NCBI GenBank assembly: GCA_041666225.1
Contig: JBAYHJ010000005.1
Span: 2,320 to 66,319 of the forward strand
DNA from: Minisyncoccota bacterium
GTDB lineage: Bacteria > Patescibacteriota > Minisyncoccia > Phycocordibacterales > UBA9973
Length of the DNA: 64,000 nt
Reading direction: 5' to 3'
In this document: positions 2,484 through 44,417 of the stretch, in pieces
Numbering within the stretch: the first letter of the stretch is position 1
How the letters are laid out: each line of letters opens with the position of its first letter
Made by a program: the position numbers and the translations under genes
Notes under the pieces: model-generated
What the model saw: the letters and a program-made list of their open reading frames with translations, nothing else
Told to the model about the DNA's origin: nothing
Databases searched by the model: none

Positions 2484-3506
2484 ATGGATACAAAATTACC
2501 AACATTAGAATTTATTTTAAGAAATTTTAAAAATTTTAACTCTCGTGCTACTCGCGATGCAACAATCGCATATTGGAAGCACGTAGAAAAGGGCGGCAAA
2601 ATGTTTTGGGCTGTTGGTGGAGCAATGTCTTCTGCTCAGCTTGGAATTACACTTGCTCCTGCAATTCGTAAGGGTCTTATCTCTGGTATGTCAGTAACAG
2701 GTGCAAATTTAGAAGAATCACTTTTCCGACTTGTTGCTCACAACAGTTATAAAGATTTTCCGGATTATCGATATTTTACAAAAGAAGATGACACAAAAAT
2801 CTTAGAAGACCGCATGCGTCGAGTGACAGACACAAGTATTCCAGAGGATGAAGCATTCCGTGCAGTTGAACAGCAAATCGTTCCTACTTGGAAGAAAGCA
2901 ACAGAAGAAGGAACAAGAAAATTTTGGCATGAATATTTTTACGATTTAATAAAGAGTGTTGAAGAAGAAAAACACGAAGGAAAGAAAGAAGAATGTTGGT
3001 TGCTTGCAGCCGCTGAGAATAATATTCCAATCGTTGTTCCAGGGCACGAAGATTCAACCTTTGGAAATATTTTTGCTTCATATGTAAAAAATAATGAATG
3101 TAGTCCAAACATTGTTAAATCTGGTATTGAATATATGGCCGCTTTTTATGATCAATATCAAACTCTTTCAGAGGGTGAAGGAATTGGATTTTTTCAAATT
3201 GGAGGAGGTATTTCAGGAGATTTTCCTATTTGTGTAGTTCCATCACTTAAATACGATATGCAAATTGACAATGTAAAACCTTGGGCATATTTTTGTCAGA
3301 TTTCTGATTCTACAACTTCATATGGTTCATACTCAGGTGCTACTCCAAACGAAAAAATTACTTGGGATAAACTTACCAAAGATACTCCAATGTTTGTTAT
3401 TGAGTCAGACGCAACTATTGTCGTACCACTAATACTTGAAGCTCTTATGGAGTGTCTTGAAAGTCCAATAGAGGCAAATAGATTAATAGAAAAATATACA
3501 GCTTAA
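2484..3506 (+). CDS. Deoxyhypusine synthase-like protein (bacterial DHS/homospermidine-synthase-like family)
   Basis: GGAMSSAQLG, SVTGANLEESL and VVPGHEDSTFGNIF match DHS family NAD-binding motifs; embedded in polyamine cluster. Confidence 0.6.
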   Translation: MDTKLPTLEFILRNFKNFNSRATRDATIAYWKHVEKGGKMFWAVGGAMSSAQLGITLAPAIRKGLISGMSVTGANLEESLFRLVAHNSYKDFPDYRYFTKEDDTKILEDRMRRVTDTSIPEDEAFRAVEQQIVPTWKKATEEGTRKFWHEYFYDLIKSVEEEKHEGKKEECWLLAAAENNIPIVVPGHEDSTFGNIFASYVKNNECSPNIVKSGIEYMAAFYDQYQTLSEGEGIGFFQIGGGISGDFPICVVPSLKYDMQIDNVKPWAYFCQISDSTTSYGSYSGATPNEKITWDKLTKDTPMFVIESDATIVVPLILEALMECLESPIEANRLIEKYTA

Positions 3507-3514
3507 TTTAGTAT

Positions 3515-3637
3515 AAGCTATACAAATTATAATAACAAAAAAGTCTGAATCAAGGAGGAGGACGAAGAGCCACCCAGTAGGTGATTCTCCTGAATCAGAC
3601 ACATTTCATAAAATAATTTGTTCCGCTTTAAAATCAC
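3515..3637. repeat. Intergenic repeat element copy 1: conserved AT-rich arms around a GC-rich imperfect hairpin core, ends at the ATG of aguB
   Basis: Left arm aagctatacaaattataataacaaaaaa and right arm cagacacatttcataaaataatttgttccgctttaaaatcaca are near-identical to 33230..33340; core gtctgaatcaaggagg...cctcctgaatcagac is self-complementary. Confidence 0.5.
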
Positions 3638-4525
3638 ATGAAAAAGAAAATGGTCACAGTTGGACTAGTTCAGAGTGCTGTTTCAGCTAACTTAAAATCA
3701 AATTTAAATAAAACTTTAAAAATGGTAGAAAATGCGGCGAAAAAAGGAGCTGAAATTATTTGCTTGCAAGAACTTTATAAAACACCATATTTCCCAAATA
3801 AGAAAAATGTTAAAATTGAAAGCTATCTTGAAACTATACCCGGTGAATCTACCTTGGCATTTAAGGATATTTCTAAGAAATATAAATGTTCAATAATTTT
3901 ACCAATTTATGAAAAAGCTAAAAATGGTAAACTTTACAATACAGTTGTTGTTATAAATGAAAAAGGGGAAATACAGCCAACATATCGTAAAATTCATATT
4001 CCCCATGATCCAAGTTTTTATGAGAAAGATTATTTTGCCGAAGGGAATAATGGTTATCAATTATTTAAACATAAAGATATTATTTACTCAGTATTAATAT
4101 GTTTTGACCAATGGTTCCCAGAAGCTGCTCGTATGGCCAAACTCTCTGGCACAGAAATGATTTTCTATCCGACAGCTATCGGAAATATAATTGGAGAAAA
4201 ACCAATAGAAGGAGATTGGCATGATGCATGGGAGACGGTTATGCGTGGGCATGCAATTGCCAATAGTTTGCCTGTAATTGCAGTCAATAGAACTGGAACT
4301 GAGGATAAATCAAGATTCTGGGGTCAATCATTTATTTGTGATGCGTTTGGTAAAATTCTCAAGAGAGCTAGTAATAAAAAAGATGAAACTATCGTTGCTA
4401 CTTTAGATTTATCAATGAATGAATATATTTCAGAGGGTTGGGGATTTTTAAGAAATAGAAGGGTAGATACTTATAAATTGATAACAAATAAAATTATTAA
4501 AAAGAAAAATGATAGAAATTCCTAA
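3638..4525 (+). CDS. aguB: N-carbamoylputrescine amidase (carbon-nitrogen hydrolase family)
   Basis: Nitrilase-superfamily fold with catalytic Cys in ICFDQWFPEAAR (typical of AguB), E in CLQELY, K in YRKIH. Confidence 0.75.
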   Translation: MKKKMVTVGLVQSAVSANLKSNLNKTLKMVENAAKKGAEIICLQELYKTPYFPNKKNVKIESYLETIPGESTLAFKDISKKYKCSIILPIYEKAKNGKLYNTVVVINEKGEIQPTYRKIHIPHDPSFYEKDYFAEGNNGYQLFKHKDIIYSVLICFDQWFPEAARMAKLSGTEMIFYPTAIGNIIGEKPIEGDWHDAWETVMRGHAIANSLPVIAVNRTGTEDKSRFWGQSFICDAFGKILKRASNKKDETIVATLDLSMNEYISEGWGFLRNRRVDTYKLITNKIIKKKNDRNS

Positions 4526-5581: not shown

Positions 5582-6508
5582 ATGACATGGTTTTTTATTG
5601 CATTACTAGCTCCAGTTTTTTGGAGTATTAGCACCCATTTTGATAAATATATACTCTCGAGATACAGCAAACGAGGGGGAATGGAATCTGTTTTTTTATT
5701 CTCAACTTTTTTCTCATTAATTTTTGCATTGTTTATATTTTCAATTAAATACAATGAAATTATTTCATATTCTGAATATCAAAATATTTTATTATTCGTT
5801 ATTCCTGGAATTTTAAATGCCTTAGGTTTATATTTTTATTTGAAATCACTAAAAAACGAAGAATCATCTATCGTGGTTGCACTTTTCCAAGTTTCTCCAG
5901 TTTTTGCTTATTTTTTAAGTTATTTAATTTTAGGTGAAATATTAACTAAAATTCAAATCTTTGCATCTATTATAATCTTGTTGGGTGCAACTATTTTATC
6001 TTTTAATATAGAGGAGAAAAGGAAAATTTTAGTAAAATGGGAAATGGTGAGATACATTTTACTCGCTGCTTTATTCTTTGCTCTCAACGATGTTATATTC
6101 AAAGAATTTACAATTTCCCATGGTTCCTTTATTACTTCACTTTTTTATCAGCATATTGGGATTTTTATTGTTGGGTTATTATTTTTTTTATTTAAAAAAC
6201 ATTATAAGGAAGATTTTATTTTATTATTAAAAAATAATAAAATAAAAATTTTTGTTTTAAATGGGGCAACAGAATTGTCTTATGTATTAGGCAATCTTAT
6301 AAGTAATTTTGTAATGCTGTCAGTTCCTGTAGCACTTGTTCTTATCGTTAATACCTACCAGACTGTTTTTACTTTCACTATAGGCTTATTATTAACGTTA
6401 TTTTTACCACACATTGTTACAGAAAAAATATCAAAACGTCATTTAATTCAAAAAATATTGGCCATTACTATCATTATTATAGGTAGCTATTTTCTTTACT
6501 TAAGTTAA
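5582..6508 (+). CDS. EamA/DMT-family membrane transporter (about 10 TM)
   Basis: Two repeated 5-TM hydrophobic halves typical of the EamA duplication; immediately downstream of the polyamine genes. Confidence 0.55.
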   Translation: MTWFFIALLAPVFWSISTHFDKYILSRYSKRGGMESVFLFSTFFSLIFALFIFSIKYNEIISYSEYQNILLFVIPGILNALGLYFYLKSLKNEESSIVVALFQVSPVFAYFLSYLILGEILTKIQIFASIIILLGATILSFNIEEKRKILVKWEMVRYILLAALFFALNDVIFKEFTISHGSFITSLFYQHIGIFIVGLLFFLFKKHYKEDFILLLKNNKIKIFVLNGATELSYVLGNLISNFVMLSVPVALVLIVNTYQTVFTFTIGLLLTLFLPHIVTEKISKRHLIQKILAITIIIIGSYFLYLS

Positions 6509-33190: not shown

Positions 33191-33229
33191 TTCATAAAGA
33201 AAAATGATACAATAATTGTGAGAGAATAA

Positions 33230-33340
33230 AAGCTACACAAATTATAATAACAAAAAACTCCTCGGATCTCCTCGCCGAATCCCTTAAGAAGCTCGGCCAG
33301 ACATTTTTTCATAAAATAATTTGTTTCACTTAAAATAACA
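33230..33340. repeat. Intergenic repeat element copy 2 (same conserved arms as 3515..3637, different GC-rich core), ends at the ATG of the transketolase N-subunit
   Basis: aagctacacaaattataataacaaaaaa ... cagacattttttcataaaataatttgtttcacttaaaataaca. Confidence 0.5.
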
Positions 33341-34177
33341 ATGGAAAATTTAACTGACGAAAAAATTAAAGAATTAAAAATAATAGCAAATAATATCCGC
33401 AAAAGTATTATTGAAATGCTTCTTGAGGCAGGTTCTGGTCACACAGCAGGAGCATTGGGAATGGCAGATATTTTTACTTCACTTTATTTTCATATACTAA
33501 AACATAAACCCAAAGAACCACTATGGGTAAATCGTGATAGATTAGTCCTTTCAAATGGTCATATTTGCCCTGTTTTATATGCATCCATGGCTGAAGCTTC
33601 CTATTTTCCAAAGGAAGAATTAAAAACTTTAAGACAATTTGGCTCGCGTCTACAAGGACATCCACATCGTGAATTTATGCCATGGTTAGAAACTTCCTCG
33701 GGACCACTCGGATCTGGACTTTCACAAGCTGTTGGAATGGCTATCGCAGATAAAATATATGGTGGAGATAAAACAATATACGCACTATTATCTGATGGGG
33801 AACATGATGAAGGAAATACTTGGGAAGCAATAATGCTTGCCAATAAAGAAAAACTTTCAAACTTAATCGTAATCGTTGATAGAAATAGTATTCAAATAGG
33901 TGGAAATACAGAAAAGGTTATGCCTCTTGGTAATTTAAAAGAAAAATACCAATCATTTGGATGGAATATTTTTGAAGTGGACGGTCATGATTTTTGGGAA
34001 ATTAATAATGCGATTTATAATGCTAAAAAAAATAAAGACAAACCATCTGTAATAATTGCACATACAATACCAGGGAAAGGAGTCCGAGAATGGGAAAATG
34101 ATTACCGTTGGCATGGTAAAGCTCCTAATAAAGAAGAAGCAGAAATGGCATTGCGCGGATTAGGAGCTAGTTTATAG
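33341..34177 (+). CDS. Transketolase, N-terminal (TPP-binding) subunit of a split enzyme
   Basis: GSGHTAGALGMADIF, GDG...E TPP-binding motif (SDGEHDEGNTWE). Confidence 0.85.
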   Translation: MENLTDEKIKELKIIANNIRKSIIEMLLEAGSGHTAGALGMADIFTSLYFHILKHKPKEPLWVNRDRLVLSNGHICPVLYASMAEASYFPKEELKTLRQFGSRLQGHPHREFMPWLETSSGPLGSGLSQAVGMAIADKIYGGDKTIYALLSDGEHDEGNTWEAIMLANKEKLSNLIVIVDRNSIQIGGNTEKVMPLGNLKEKYQSFGWNIFEVDGHDFWEINNAIYNAKKNKDKPSVIIAHTIPGKGVREWENDYRWHGKAPNKEEAEMALRGLGASL

Positions 34178-43292: not shown

Positions 43293-43302
43293 CTTTCACA
43301 AA

Positions 43303-43332
43303 ACCTCCTCCTTTTAAGGGGGGAGGTTTTTT
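43303..43332 (+). terminator. Rho-independent terminator after rpmE
   Basis: aacctcctcc-tttta-aggggggaggtt followed by TTTTTT. Confidence 0.5.
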
Positions 43333-43340
43333 GGATTAAT

Positions 43341-43420
43341 TCCTCCCCTCCTTACCAAGGAGGGGAATGAGGGGAGGTCAATTAATTAAGAGACCCCCTC
43401 CCCTTGTTAAGGGGAGGGGG
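43341..43420 (+). promoter_or_regulatory. GC-rich polypurine/polypyrimidine hairpin pair with alternative pairing potential, upstream of prfA
   Basis: cccctcctt-acc-aaggagggg (43345..43365), competing gaggggagg (43369..43377), perfect ccccctcccc-ttgttaa-ggggaggggg (43394..43420). Confidence 0.4.
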
Positions 43421-43448
43421 AATACAAACCTTGTGCTATAATATTTTT

Positions 43449-44417
43449 ATGCAACTAGACTTAGAACAATTAAAAAAAGACCACAAAACTAGTTACTTTG
43501 CTATGGAGTACGAGCGTCTTTTGAGTGAAGAGAAAAAAGTTAATGATATGCTAACTGAAGACGAAAGTTTACGAGATCTAGCAGAAGAAGAAATTCAAAA
43601 TATAAAATTTCAAAAAGAAGCCATCGAAAGACAATTAGAAGAAATGTCAAAAAGAGAAGAGGAAGAAGAGGAATTTCCAAATGAAATTATTCTTGAAGTT
43701 CGTGCTGGTGCAGGAGGCGATGAAGCATCTCTCTTTGCATGGGAACTCGCACATATGTATGAAAGATTTGCAGAAAAAAATAAATGGAACTGGAAAATAC
43801 TAAATGAATCTCTAAGTAGTGCTGGTGGTTACAAAGAAGCTTCAATCGAAATAAAAGGGAAAGATGTTTACAAACTTCTCAGATATGAGACAGGTGTTCA
43901 TCGGGTTCAACGTATTCCTGCTACAGAAAAAAATGGCAGAATTCATACTTCGACAGCTTCTGTCGCAGTACTTCCTTTAAAAAAGAAAACTACAATTATT
44001 ATAAATCCTGCAGATTTAGAAATAGAATACTCACGTTCAGGTGGAGCTGGTGGCCAAAATGTGAATAAAGTCGAAACAGCTGTTCGTCTTATTCATAAAC
44101 CAACAGGTGAGGATGTTCGCTGTACCACAGAAAGAACTCAACTTGGTAATAGAGAAAAAGCCATGATGATGCTCACTTCAAAACTTCAAATGATTAAAGA
44201 TGAAGAAGATGCAAAGAAATATTCAGGCGATAGAAAGGCGCAAATCGGCACAAACGACCGAAGTGAAAAAATCCGTACCTATAATTTTCCCCAAGATAGA
44301 ATCACTGATCATCGTATTAAACAGTCTTGGTCAAATATCCCAATCATAATGGAAGGGAACATAAATAAAATCATTGAAGCACTTTCTTCTGGAGTAATGG
44401 GGGAAGAGGAAGAATAA
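43449..44417 (+). CDS. prfA: Peptide chain release factor 1 (start at ATG 43449; the ORF track TTG-extended to 43404)
   Basis: GGQ motif ([10 protein letters not shown]), RF1-type tripeptide PAT in [15 protein letters not shown]. Confidence 0.85.

Follow-up and report, generated by a model that had tools for sequence, protein, structure and literature searches.

That proteobacteria and firmicutes have small palindromic repeats is well established, and our literature search found no description of them in bacteria of the candidate phyla radiation (CPR). The known kinds closest to the element reported here are the Correia/NEMIS MITEs of Neisseria and the Rickettsia palindromic elements (RPEs). 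Correia elements lie upstream of genes, give RNA that is cut by RNase III and can carry promoters, and RPEs insert in-frame in open reading frames (ORFs) (PMC10969869). ERIC and REP-REPIN sequences are palindromic repeats which can affect the stability of flanking mRNA. A different kind of repeated hairpin is found in phage T7, whose RNase III signals (R0.3, R0.5 and R1.1) are homologous to each other, have conserved internal loops and are located between cistrons shortly before the next start.

The element described here occurs twice in the 64-kb window (the whole stretch of DNA that was analysed), before aguB and before tkt, and belongs to a family with many copies in related genomes. Like Correia elements (about 100-150 bp), it is a short repeat with long terminal inverted repeats that forms a hairpin when transcribed, is dispersed in many copies, most of them directly before genes or between genes that are transcribed together, and shows presence/absence polymorphism and internal length variants. 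Correia elements, in contrast, have a duplicated TA target and an IHF site, whereas in our element the GC-rich apex is the part most conserved across subfamilies, whole stems are replaceable, and the position is much more tightly fixed, at 7-11 nt before an ATG, in a CPR host that does without Shine-Dalgarno (SD) motifs. The features by which MITEs are recognised are present, namely a non-coding sequence of less than about 300 bp, terminal inverted repeats, multiple dispersed copies and polymorphism at orthologous sites, and we stop short of strict membership because no target-site duplication could be demonstrated and no transposase was found in the short flanks around the matches.

With RPEs the element shares its occurrence as a palindromic repeat in a reduced genome, both in intergenic regions and in-frame in housekeeping ORFs that are left intact, as well as the absence of a known transposase and the existence of several families. 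It differs from them in that the window copies are intergenic, the frames of the copies in ORFs differ, and the main subfamily is strongly tied to start codons. We know of no sequence relationship between the two, and homology is not expected between different phyla. ERIC and REP-REPIN sequences are, like our element, imperfect palindromes in transcribed intergenic regions, in either orientation, with size variants from internal insertions at fixed sites. REPINs are, however, doublets of GC-rich REPs mobilised by RAYT transposases, whereas the conserved stems of the element are AT-rich and no RAYT was seen in the short flanks around the matches; ERICs are known only from enterobacteria and vibrios and show no link to start codons. 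The T7 signals, unlike the element, are not mobile and are absent from ORFs, and the likeness to them is a functional analogy only.

Two copies of one palindrome in the window

Pairwise alignment of positions 3480-3660 with 33195-33365 gave a common left arm of 28 nt in which one base differs, AAGCTA[T/C]ACAAATTATAATAACAAAAAA (3515-3542 and 33230-33257), and a common right arm of about 30 nt, CAGACA..TTTCATAAAATAATTTGTT[C/T]C[G/A]CTT (about 3596-3628 and 33296-33331). Between them lie GC-rich cores (3543-3600 and 33258-33302; peak of 57-60% in 40-nt windows vs 31% for the whole window), for which pairwise comparison found no alignment to each other. The left-arm 21-mer ACAAATTATAATAACAAAAAA had exactly 2 occurrences in the 64 kb, compared to 0.10 expected, and the near-identical arms around differing GC-rich cores that an earlier note had pointed out are thus real. 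Exact matches to the 16-mer CATAAAATAATTTGTT were found in the window at the two copies only, and with 3 mismatches allowed its count equalled chance. The covariance model of the family, run on the 64 kb, returned only these 2 copies at 73 and 56 bits, with the next match at 19 bits. Rfam 15 gave no match at the gathering threshold for the whole window, and none at E <= 10 for either copy.

Copy 1 lies on the plus strand between the co-directional genes of deoxyhypusine synthase (DS) and aguB. Its left arm (3515..3542, AAGCTATACAAATTATAATAACAAAAAA) consists of the outer helix strand AAGC, the 9-nt helix strand ACAAATTAT and an A6 tract, and its right arm (3601..3628, ACATTTCATAAAATAATTTGTTCCGCTT) is the inverted repeat of the left one. 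The GC-rich apical core (3543..3600) has GTC...GAC closing pairs and contains a diverged family motif, AGGAGGAGGACGAAGAGCCA (about 3553-3572), an extra 24-nt hairpin module, CCAGTAGGTGATTCTCCTGAATCA (3574-3597), and a direct repeat, TGAATCA (3546-3552 and 3591-3597). This core had been called self-complementary, and folding agreed: GTCTGAATCA pairs with TGAATCAGAC, at -21 kcal/mol and z = -2.9. A 9-nt A/U-rich linker, TAAAATCAC, leads to the ATG of aguB (3629..3640 with the ATG; CN_hydrolase, ORF 3638-4525), and there is no SD motif before this ATG.

Copy 2, on the same strand, lies between rpe and tkt, which are also co-directional, and an extended -10 box, TGATACAAT (33205..33213), precedes it as a promoter. 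The left arm (33230..33257, AAGCTACACAAATTATAATAACAAAAAA) is followed by a core of the family type B (33258..33302, CTCCTCGGATCTCCTCGCC-[variable hairpin GAATCCCTTAAGAA]-GCTCGGCCAGAC), the right arm (33303..33331, ATTTTTTCATAAAATAATTTGTTTCACTT), and the 9-nt linker AAAATAACA with the ATG of tkt (33332..33343; N-terminal subunit of transketolase, ORF 33341-34177). The plus strand of this core folded no better than shuffles (z = -0.2).

When either strand is folded, AAGC...ACAAATTAT pairs with ATAATTTGT...GCTT. The arms are thus inverted repeats of each other, and each copy is one long imperfect palindrome with a GC-rich apex cap. Of the earlier description of a right arm running to the start codon, the shared arm was confirmed and its reach to the ATG was not: the conserved sequence stops 9 nt before the ATG, and the two linkers are only loosely alike. 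The TATAAT reported for the left arms is present at 3528-3533 and 33243-33248; both window copies also have the left-arm variant AATAAC, compared to ATTCTG in the family consensus, a variant of this lineage by which the copies of one genome resemble each other.

A dispersed family with a conserved apex and exchangeable stems

More than 45 further copies were found in metagenome and MAG contigs of related Paceibacteria/Nomurabacteria (L numbers below), and the arms are conserved there. The right-arm 19-mer had at least 119 matches in metagenome contigs; about 45 among the matches listed were full elements and the rest were chance. When GTDB genome contigs were scanned with the left-arm 20-mer, 30 of 32 matches were chance hits in unrelated organisms, leaving L026 and L037 as the real ones. 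The covariance model R1 collected 38 high-scoring copies, along with copies that carry the same core on different stems. The arm search proposed in the earlier note was thus positive in related genomes, and its view of a portable module rather than a chance likeness is supported by a repeat that is dispersed in dozens of copies across them. Several genomes hold multiple copies: 2 in the 64-kb window, 3 in 20 kb of L159, 2 in 16 kb of L160, and 2 in L058. One Logan contig, L002, ends inside an element, which is an assembly break.

In viral contigs (IMG/VR) the core motif is absent and the 23 matches to the right-arm 19-mer were all chance; a phage origin was rejected on this ground. Rfam searches with ten consensus-type loci (E <= 1) and five further loci returned only tRNAs and noise, and no paper describing the element was found by searching for CPR repeats, for leaderless and SD work in Patescibacteria, or for the sequence strings. 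With no Rfam model and no describing paper found, we consider the family previously undescribed.

The element is about 65-125 bp long and has no ORF of its own. An ATG...TAA frame in type A cores was considered as a leader peptide and rejected, because the ATG is unconserved (ACG or AGG in other copies). The family consensus is AGCT[A/T]CACAAATTATATTCTGAAAAAA-GTCCTCGGATGAGGGAGGACGAGGAGCCAGAC-ATTTTTTCATAAAATAATTTGTT[C/T]CGCT, with GTCCTCGGAYGAGGGAGGACGAGGRGCCAGAC as the conserved apical motif, and the cores are variants of this motif, not arbitrary sequences. Type A is the 32-nt motif of the consensus. Type B, a common type of which copy 2 is typical, is GTCCTCGGATCTCCTCGCC-[variable hairpin]-GCTCGGCCAGAC, and type C is type A with a GC hairpin of 30-34 nt inserted after GTCCTCG. 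Type C occurs at orthologous atpD and frr loci at which close relatives have plain type A (L105 vs L147, L094 vs L058). Copy 1 has a diverged type A core (AGGAGGAGGACGAAGAGCCA) with the 24-nt hairpin module, and the module CCAGTAGGTGATTCTCCTGAATCA is found alone in the speA|DS spacer of a close relative (L158). These cases show that the apex is a hot spot for the gain and exchange of extra hairpins, which accounts for the core that had appeared to be swapped between the two window copies (type B in copy 2, type A plus the 24-nt hairpin in copy 1).

Stems are exchanged as well, since the same core was found with R1 on entirely different, still complementary stems (L095 9200-9289, L070 4891-4982, and L126), and mini versions (L064, L070) keep the outer helix and its spacing. 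Within the main subfamily, however, it is the apex that varies while the stem formed by the arms is almost invariant, the reverse of the variable stem proposed before. Loci with 63-73% identity in their coding sequences have arms that are 92-100% identical.

Pairing and covariation of the hairpin

From the outside in, the hairpin consists of a 4-bp outer helix, a 3x3 internal loop, the 9-bp helix ACAAATTAT/ATAATTTGT, an imperfect helix containing the A6/T6 tracts, the GTC/GAC closing pairs, and the GC-rich apical module carrying GTCCTCGGAYGAGGGAGGACGAGGRGCCAGAC. In the 38 copies aligned to R1, 95% of stem cells are standard pairs, and 9 of 26 stem pairs (27 cells) show changes on both sides. 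None of 500 shuffles matched the observed pairing and covariation, pairing in slid controls (partner shifted by 1-3 columns) was 44-53%, and a MAFFT alignment gave a similar result. Whole-arm compensatory variants were found at L058 9590-9702 (TTTTGCAAATTAT/ATAATTTGCAAAA), in L095 (ATGCTAAC/GTTAGCAT), at L160 9903-9993 (ATCCCGAAAAAAGG/..TTTTTTCAGGAAAT), and in L133.

Among the stem mismatches, G.U (7) and A.C (9) are equally common, so no strand-specific selection on RNA is visible, and the covariation could also reflect symmetrisation of the palindrome at the DNA level. Folding energies gave an inconsistent outcome as to the functional strand. Two hairpins in the type A core, GUCCUC/GAGGAC and CCUCG/CGAGG, were rejected because substitutions there are uncompensated; for a small CCUC-GGAN-GAGG hairpin in the same core there is one compensatory example (L126).

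Rapid turnover at orthologous junctions and copies inside ORFs

The tkt site is filled in the window and is without the element in L004, the closest tkt ortholog locus, whose TktN is 88% identical. L004 reads TGATACAATAAACAAAGATG, and the window reads TGATACAATAA, about 120 bp, and AATAACAATG; in this element-free ortholog the same TGATACAAT box is found 8 nt before the tkt ATG. The aguB site is empty in L158 (92% identity) and in L159 (87%), which comes from the same sample as the window, with 15-18 nt between DS and aguB, and it is filled in L160 (GCA_964563715.1; 86% identity). Across the conserved cluster paaX-dnaK-dnaJ-speA-DS-aguB-aguA, the window has a copy at DS|aguB only, L159 has copies at paaX|dnaK, dnaK|dnaJ, and speA|DS, L160 has copies at speA|DS and DS|aguB, and L158 has no copy in the cluster. 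This shows that the element is gained and lost quickly at differing junctions of conserved clusters.

A k-mer test of the flanks showed no distinct target-site duplication, the best result being a 3-mer with 8 observed against 1.7 expected, among about 2000 tests. The comparison of filled and empty sites, whose flanks have diverged, allows a duplication of at most 1-5 nt (T/TA, AAC or AATAA). No transposase or autonomous partner was found in the short flanks around the matches.

Some copies are located inside ORFs, all in related genomes and none within the window; they have the family core on other stems, and they are in-frame with the genes intact. Residues 440-475 of UvrB in L037 are an insert compared to all solved UvrB structures, with chain residue 428 aligning on both sides of it, and UvrB of L026 has the orthologous insert in a diverged form. 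A SAM methyltransferase in L058 has a 24-residue insert (residues about 113-136) compared to PDB 2igt, exactly at the element. The reading frame differs among these copies, so a conserved peptide is not apparent. The inserts that the element adds to proteins are 24-36 residues long.

The family is thus a dispersed, hairpin-forming, and palindromic one, with high turnover, tolerated in-frame in ORFs and tied to start codons. It behaves as mobile palindromic DNA rather than as a gene-specific regulatory leader. The alternative of a gene-specific structured cis-regulatory RNA, raised in the earlier note, does not agree with the patchy occurrence at orthologous sites, the use of either orientation, the in-frame copies in ORFs, or the counts of G.U and A.C mismatches given above.

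Placement before start codons and transcription of the element

Bacteria of the CPR have small, streamlined genomes in which rnc (RNase III), rnj, and pnp are retained (PMC12641178). Genes were tightly packed in the fetched contigs. The proteins encoded beside the two copies place the window in a Candidatus Paceibacterota (Nomurabacteria-like) MAG (contig ENA ERZ27249449 k141_1670229). In the window, only 2 of 56 long ORFs are preceded by an SD-like motif, which agrees with a report that one Parcubacteria subgroup has no anti-SD motif (PMC9297842). TGnTAnAAT was found 6-7 nt before the start codon of 11 of the 56 ORFs, and plain TATAAT before 2 more; TGnTAnAAT at this distance is the signature of leaderless mRNAs.

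Flanks were readable for 37 intergenic copies, and in about 33 of these a long ORF begins 7-11 nt past the outer helix, or 13-21 nt past the 9-bp helix. The remaining four are L046 and L128 (39 nt), L125 (52 nt), and L057 (no ORF of at least 50 aa within reach). The arm next to the start is usually the right one, and in six cases it is the left arm on the other strand, so that either orientation occurs; L043 may sit between divergent genes. Most of the downstream genes are housekeeping genes (dnaK, atpD, atpF, frr, ileS, tkt, aguA/aguB, rplL, rbfA, recR, dapA, eno).

On the other side, 18 of 31 copies follow a co-directional gene whose stop is 0-40 nt away, and 8 of 31 have a TGnTAnAAT promoter 25-55 nt upstream, about 10 times the chance expectation. 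Because these canonical promoters are enriched upstream of the element and are conserved between orthologous frr loci, read-through into the element is implied. At the ileS loci the element lies downstream of an atypical T-box leader and terminator (T-box 32 bits, E = 2.7e-5, AGGUGGUACCACG motif), and must therefore be transcribed into the leader; at dnaK it is found at the end of a leader of at least 200 nt. The constant distance to the start is only partly trivial, since tiny spacers explain some of it and it holds in long leaders too. The window copies, located between co-directional genes and ending 9 nt before the ATG, would thus be transcribed in leader or intercistronic RNA. Of the promoter/5'-leader that had been suggested for this sequence, the leader holds as a location, between a co-directional gene or upstream promoter and the ATG, and the TATAAT promoter does not hold as a family feature: the consensus at that place is TATATT, and promoters of the host are of the form TGnTAnAAT, 6-7 nt before the ATG, and are located upstream of the element where they accompany it.

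Alternative explanations

It is conceivable, though we judge it unlikely, that the element is a portable promoter module resembling Correia elements, which carry promoters (PMC10969869); an outward promoter in each arm would drive the adjacent gene, and the GC hairpin with its A/T tracts would insulate it from upstream transcription. A consensus scan found TTCATA-N17/18-TAAAAT with 9 of 12 matches in the right arm and linker of both window copies, both arms have outward TTTTCA and TATAAT/AATAAT-like hexamers, the facing arm keeps a fixed short distance to the adjacent gene start in either orientation, and the possible location of L043 between divergent genes would suit such a module. The scanned promoter is, however, unlike the TGnTAnAAT of the host, is without the TG extension, and has its TAAAAT box just 2-6 nt from the ATG. 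The enriched upstream promoters, conserved at frr, speak for read-through instead, a constitutive promoter at ileS would bypass the control by T-box and terminator, and copies are found within operons and within ORFs.

A hairpin selected for genes that cannot be leaderless, because they are operon-internal or have a long leader, is a second possibility to which we give little weight. Such a hairpin would cut the RNA, or position the ribosome, about 10 nt before the AUG. The scarcity of SD-like motifs, the many leaderless-type promoters, and the loss of the anti-SD in a Parcubacteria subgroup (PMC9297842) fit this idea, as does the 7-11 nt spacing, which holds behind the ileS T-box, within the dnaK leader of 200 nt and in the mini versions. 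Most genes that follow the element are housekeeping genes with high expression (dnaK, atpD, atpF, rplL, frr, eno, tkt, ileS), and conservation is much higher in the arms than in the coding sequence next to them. On the other hand, close relatives without the element express the same genes, other operon-internal genes of the window start without such an element, either orientation occurs, there is no excess of G.U over A.C on the sense strand, and the copies inside ORFs are unable to serve this role.

A further reading is a mobile "start-site cassette", a transposable hairpin that homes to, or is selected at, a site about 10 nt before starts in an SD-less lineage relying on leaderless mRNAs, and there makes a processing or ribosome-entry point, either as an RNase III cut or as a helix in the place of the SD duplex. 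We regard this as a speculative reading with a small chance of being right. If true, it would let operon-internal genes and genes with long leaders (dnaK, atpD, rplL, ileS behind its T-box, tkt, and aguB) be translated efficiently, and would be a bacterial counterpart of the tRNA punctuation by which mitochondria generate leaderless mRNAs.

An ordinary bidirectional intrinsic terminator of the upstream gene, duplicated by happenstance, is very improbable. The layout of A6 tract, GC-rich hairpin, and T6 tract is suggestive of one, as is the minus strand of type A and C copies, in which the GC stem is directly followed by TTTTTT, and the element follows a co-directional gene in most cases. A terminator scan of both window copies, however, was negative, 6-12 nt separate the stem from the U-tract on the sense strand, and copies are found between a promoter or T-box and the gene it serves as well as inside ORFs. 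Transcription of the element into the leader excludes efficient termination on the sense strand, and AT-rich flanks of about 30 nt that are identical across loci and genomes are not expected of terminators.

A structure-specific recombination site of a gene-cassette system, similar to attC, is largely refuted: an imperfect palindrome (65-125 bp) whose outer ends are conserved and whose centre varies, located between the stop of one gene and the very close ATG of the next and in some copies ending ...GAAAC / GTTTC... (L133, L037), would agree with it, but the consensus ends are GCTTCAC / GTTYCGC and not RYYYAAC / GTTRRRY, the flanking genes are syntenic housekeeping genes in all relatives rather than cassettes, the fetched loci contain no integrase, and the copies in ORFs do not fit. 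An archaeal promoter or C/D-box sRNA, prompted by the upstream deoxyhypusine synthase and the split transketolase, was dropped, the proteins being those of Candidatus Paceibacterota/Nomurabacteria, and CRP, DnaA, or parS half-sites, hammerhead- or HDV-like ribozymes, and a CsrA GGA loop were further ideas that no test supported.

Discussion

We believe that the element is probably a palindromic repeat of Paceibacteria of the Correia/RPE kind, co-transcribed as a hairpin in 5' leaders or between cistrons. From their context, the window copies are likely to be leader or intercistronic hairpins of the aguB and tkt mRNAs. When transcribed, they may fold into an AU-rich hairpin of about 26 bp, and by analogy with Correia elements the most likely consequence would be double-stranded RNA that is cut by RNase III, or that insulates or stabilises the flanking cistrons. 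On this reading, the element is not a ligand- or factor-specific regulator of aguB or tkt. A neutral selfish element would not explain why the outer helix lies 7-11 nt before the ATG in most intergenic copies, even inside long leaders, or why the arms are so much better conserved than the coding sequences of the same loci. This placement, together with the conservation of the arms, hints at a function or at a very specific mechanism of insertion.

In kind, the element belongs with the bacterial palindromic repeats of the MITE, RPE, and ERIC type, and what sets it apart is a GC-rich apex that stays conserved on exchangeable stems, together with a near-obligatory placement 7-11 nt before starts in an SD-less lineage. 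In genomes this small and tightly packed, a repeat with fast turnover that is tolerated in essential genes and sits just before starts is a useful marker of genome evolution. It is also a practical nuisance, as it breaks assemblies (as in L002) and adds inserts to proteins. If its placement at start codons reflects a function, the element would offer a direct handle on how genes that are not leaderless are expressed in a lineage without SD motifs.

Reduced forms of the element and its core module

The palindromic repeat also occurs in reduced form among the related contigs. Mini elements, in which the outer arms AGCTACACAAAT and TTTCATAAAATAATTTGTTTCGC are directly fused without a core, were found in L064 (1937-1975) and L070 (3900-3938), and arm-like scraps, ATAAAATATTTGT and AATTATATT, each followed by ATG, are present at the "empty" aguB sites of two relatives (L159, 8975-8996; L158, 9651-9662). 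Together, these mini and remnant versions suggest that the element is lost by internal deletion and not by precise excision. The 24-nt hairpin module CCAGTAGGTGATTCT[C/A]CTGAATCA, located at 3574-3597 within the core of the copy upstream of aguB, is solitary at 8573-8596 of L158, a 92%-related genome, in the adjacent spacer, between speA and the deoxyhypusine synthase gene. An independent assembly of the locus, the Logan contig L002 (SRR6484324), is broken within the core of the same window copy, at contig position 1, as would be expected where a repeat or a hairpin interferes with assembly.

In L037 UvrB, the protein with an in-frame copy of the element, there is a second insert of 11 residues (SARRSLSEGGA, encoded at about 3764-3800), found neither in UvrB of L026, the relative with the orthologous insert, nor in solved UvrB structures.

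Other palindromes and structured leaders

A second palindromic family (L043, 3203-3288; L037, 6976-7062; L124, 1693-1777) has the same outer termini as the element, AGCTTCAC...GTTTCGCT, and differs from it in the core, TTTACCCCAAAGGGGCCCTAC, and in the stems. The dnaK and dnaJ leaders, adjoining a divergent PaaX-like regulator gene, carry a third long palindrome containing ATAAAATAGCTCTTCTT ... AAGACTATTTTAT (L158, about 3720-3840 and 5840-5950; L160, about 2020-2130; L159, 1787-1900), which may be a heat-shock control element. Upstream of ileS, an atypical T-box leader with a terminator was observed at 2549-2731 of L106 and in the corresponding region of L079; its score of 32 bits is far under the Rfam gathering score of 93, and the AGGUGGUACCACG box is present.

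Start signals in the window

In the window itself, three C-run/G-run hairpins, AACCTCCTCCTTTTAAGGGGGGAGGTTTTTT, TTCCTCCCCTCC..GGAGGGGAATGAGGGGAGG and GACCCCCTCCCCTTGTTAAGGGGAGGGGG, occupy the rpmE-prfA spacer (43293-43430), and the segment 43320-43450, which takes in the second and third hairpins and part of the first, has a folding energy of -56 kcal/mol (z = -2.8). Because TGCTATAAT lies 7 nt upstream of the prfA ATG at 43450, the TTG start listed for this gene at 43404 is probably wrong.

Shine-Dalgarno motifs are nearly absent from the whole window (2 of 56 long ORFs), and many of its genes have TGnTAnAAT 6-7 nt upstream of ATG. Transcripts of this genome would thus seem to be leaderless as a rule. 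Both features fit the loss of the anti-Shine-Dalgarno sequence reported in some Parcubacteria (PMC9297842).
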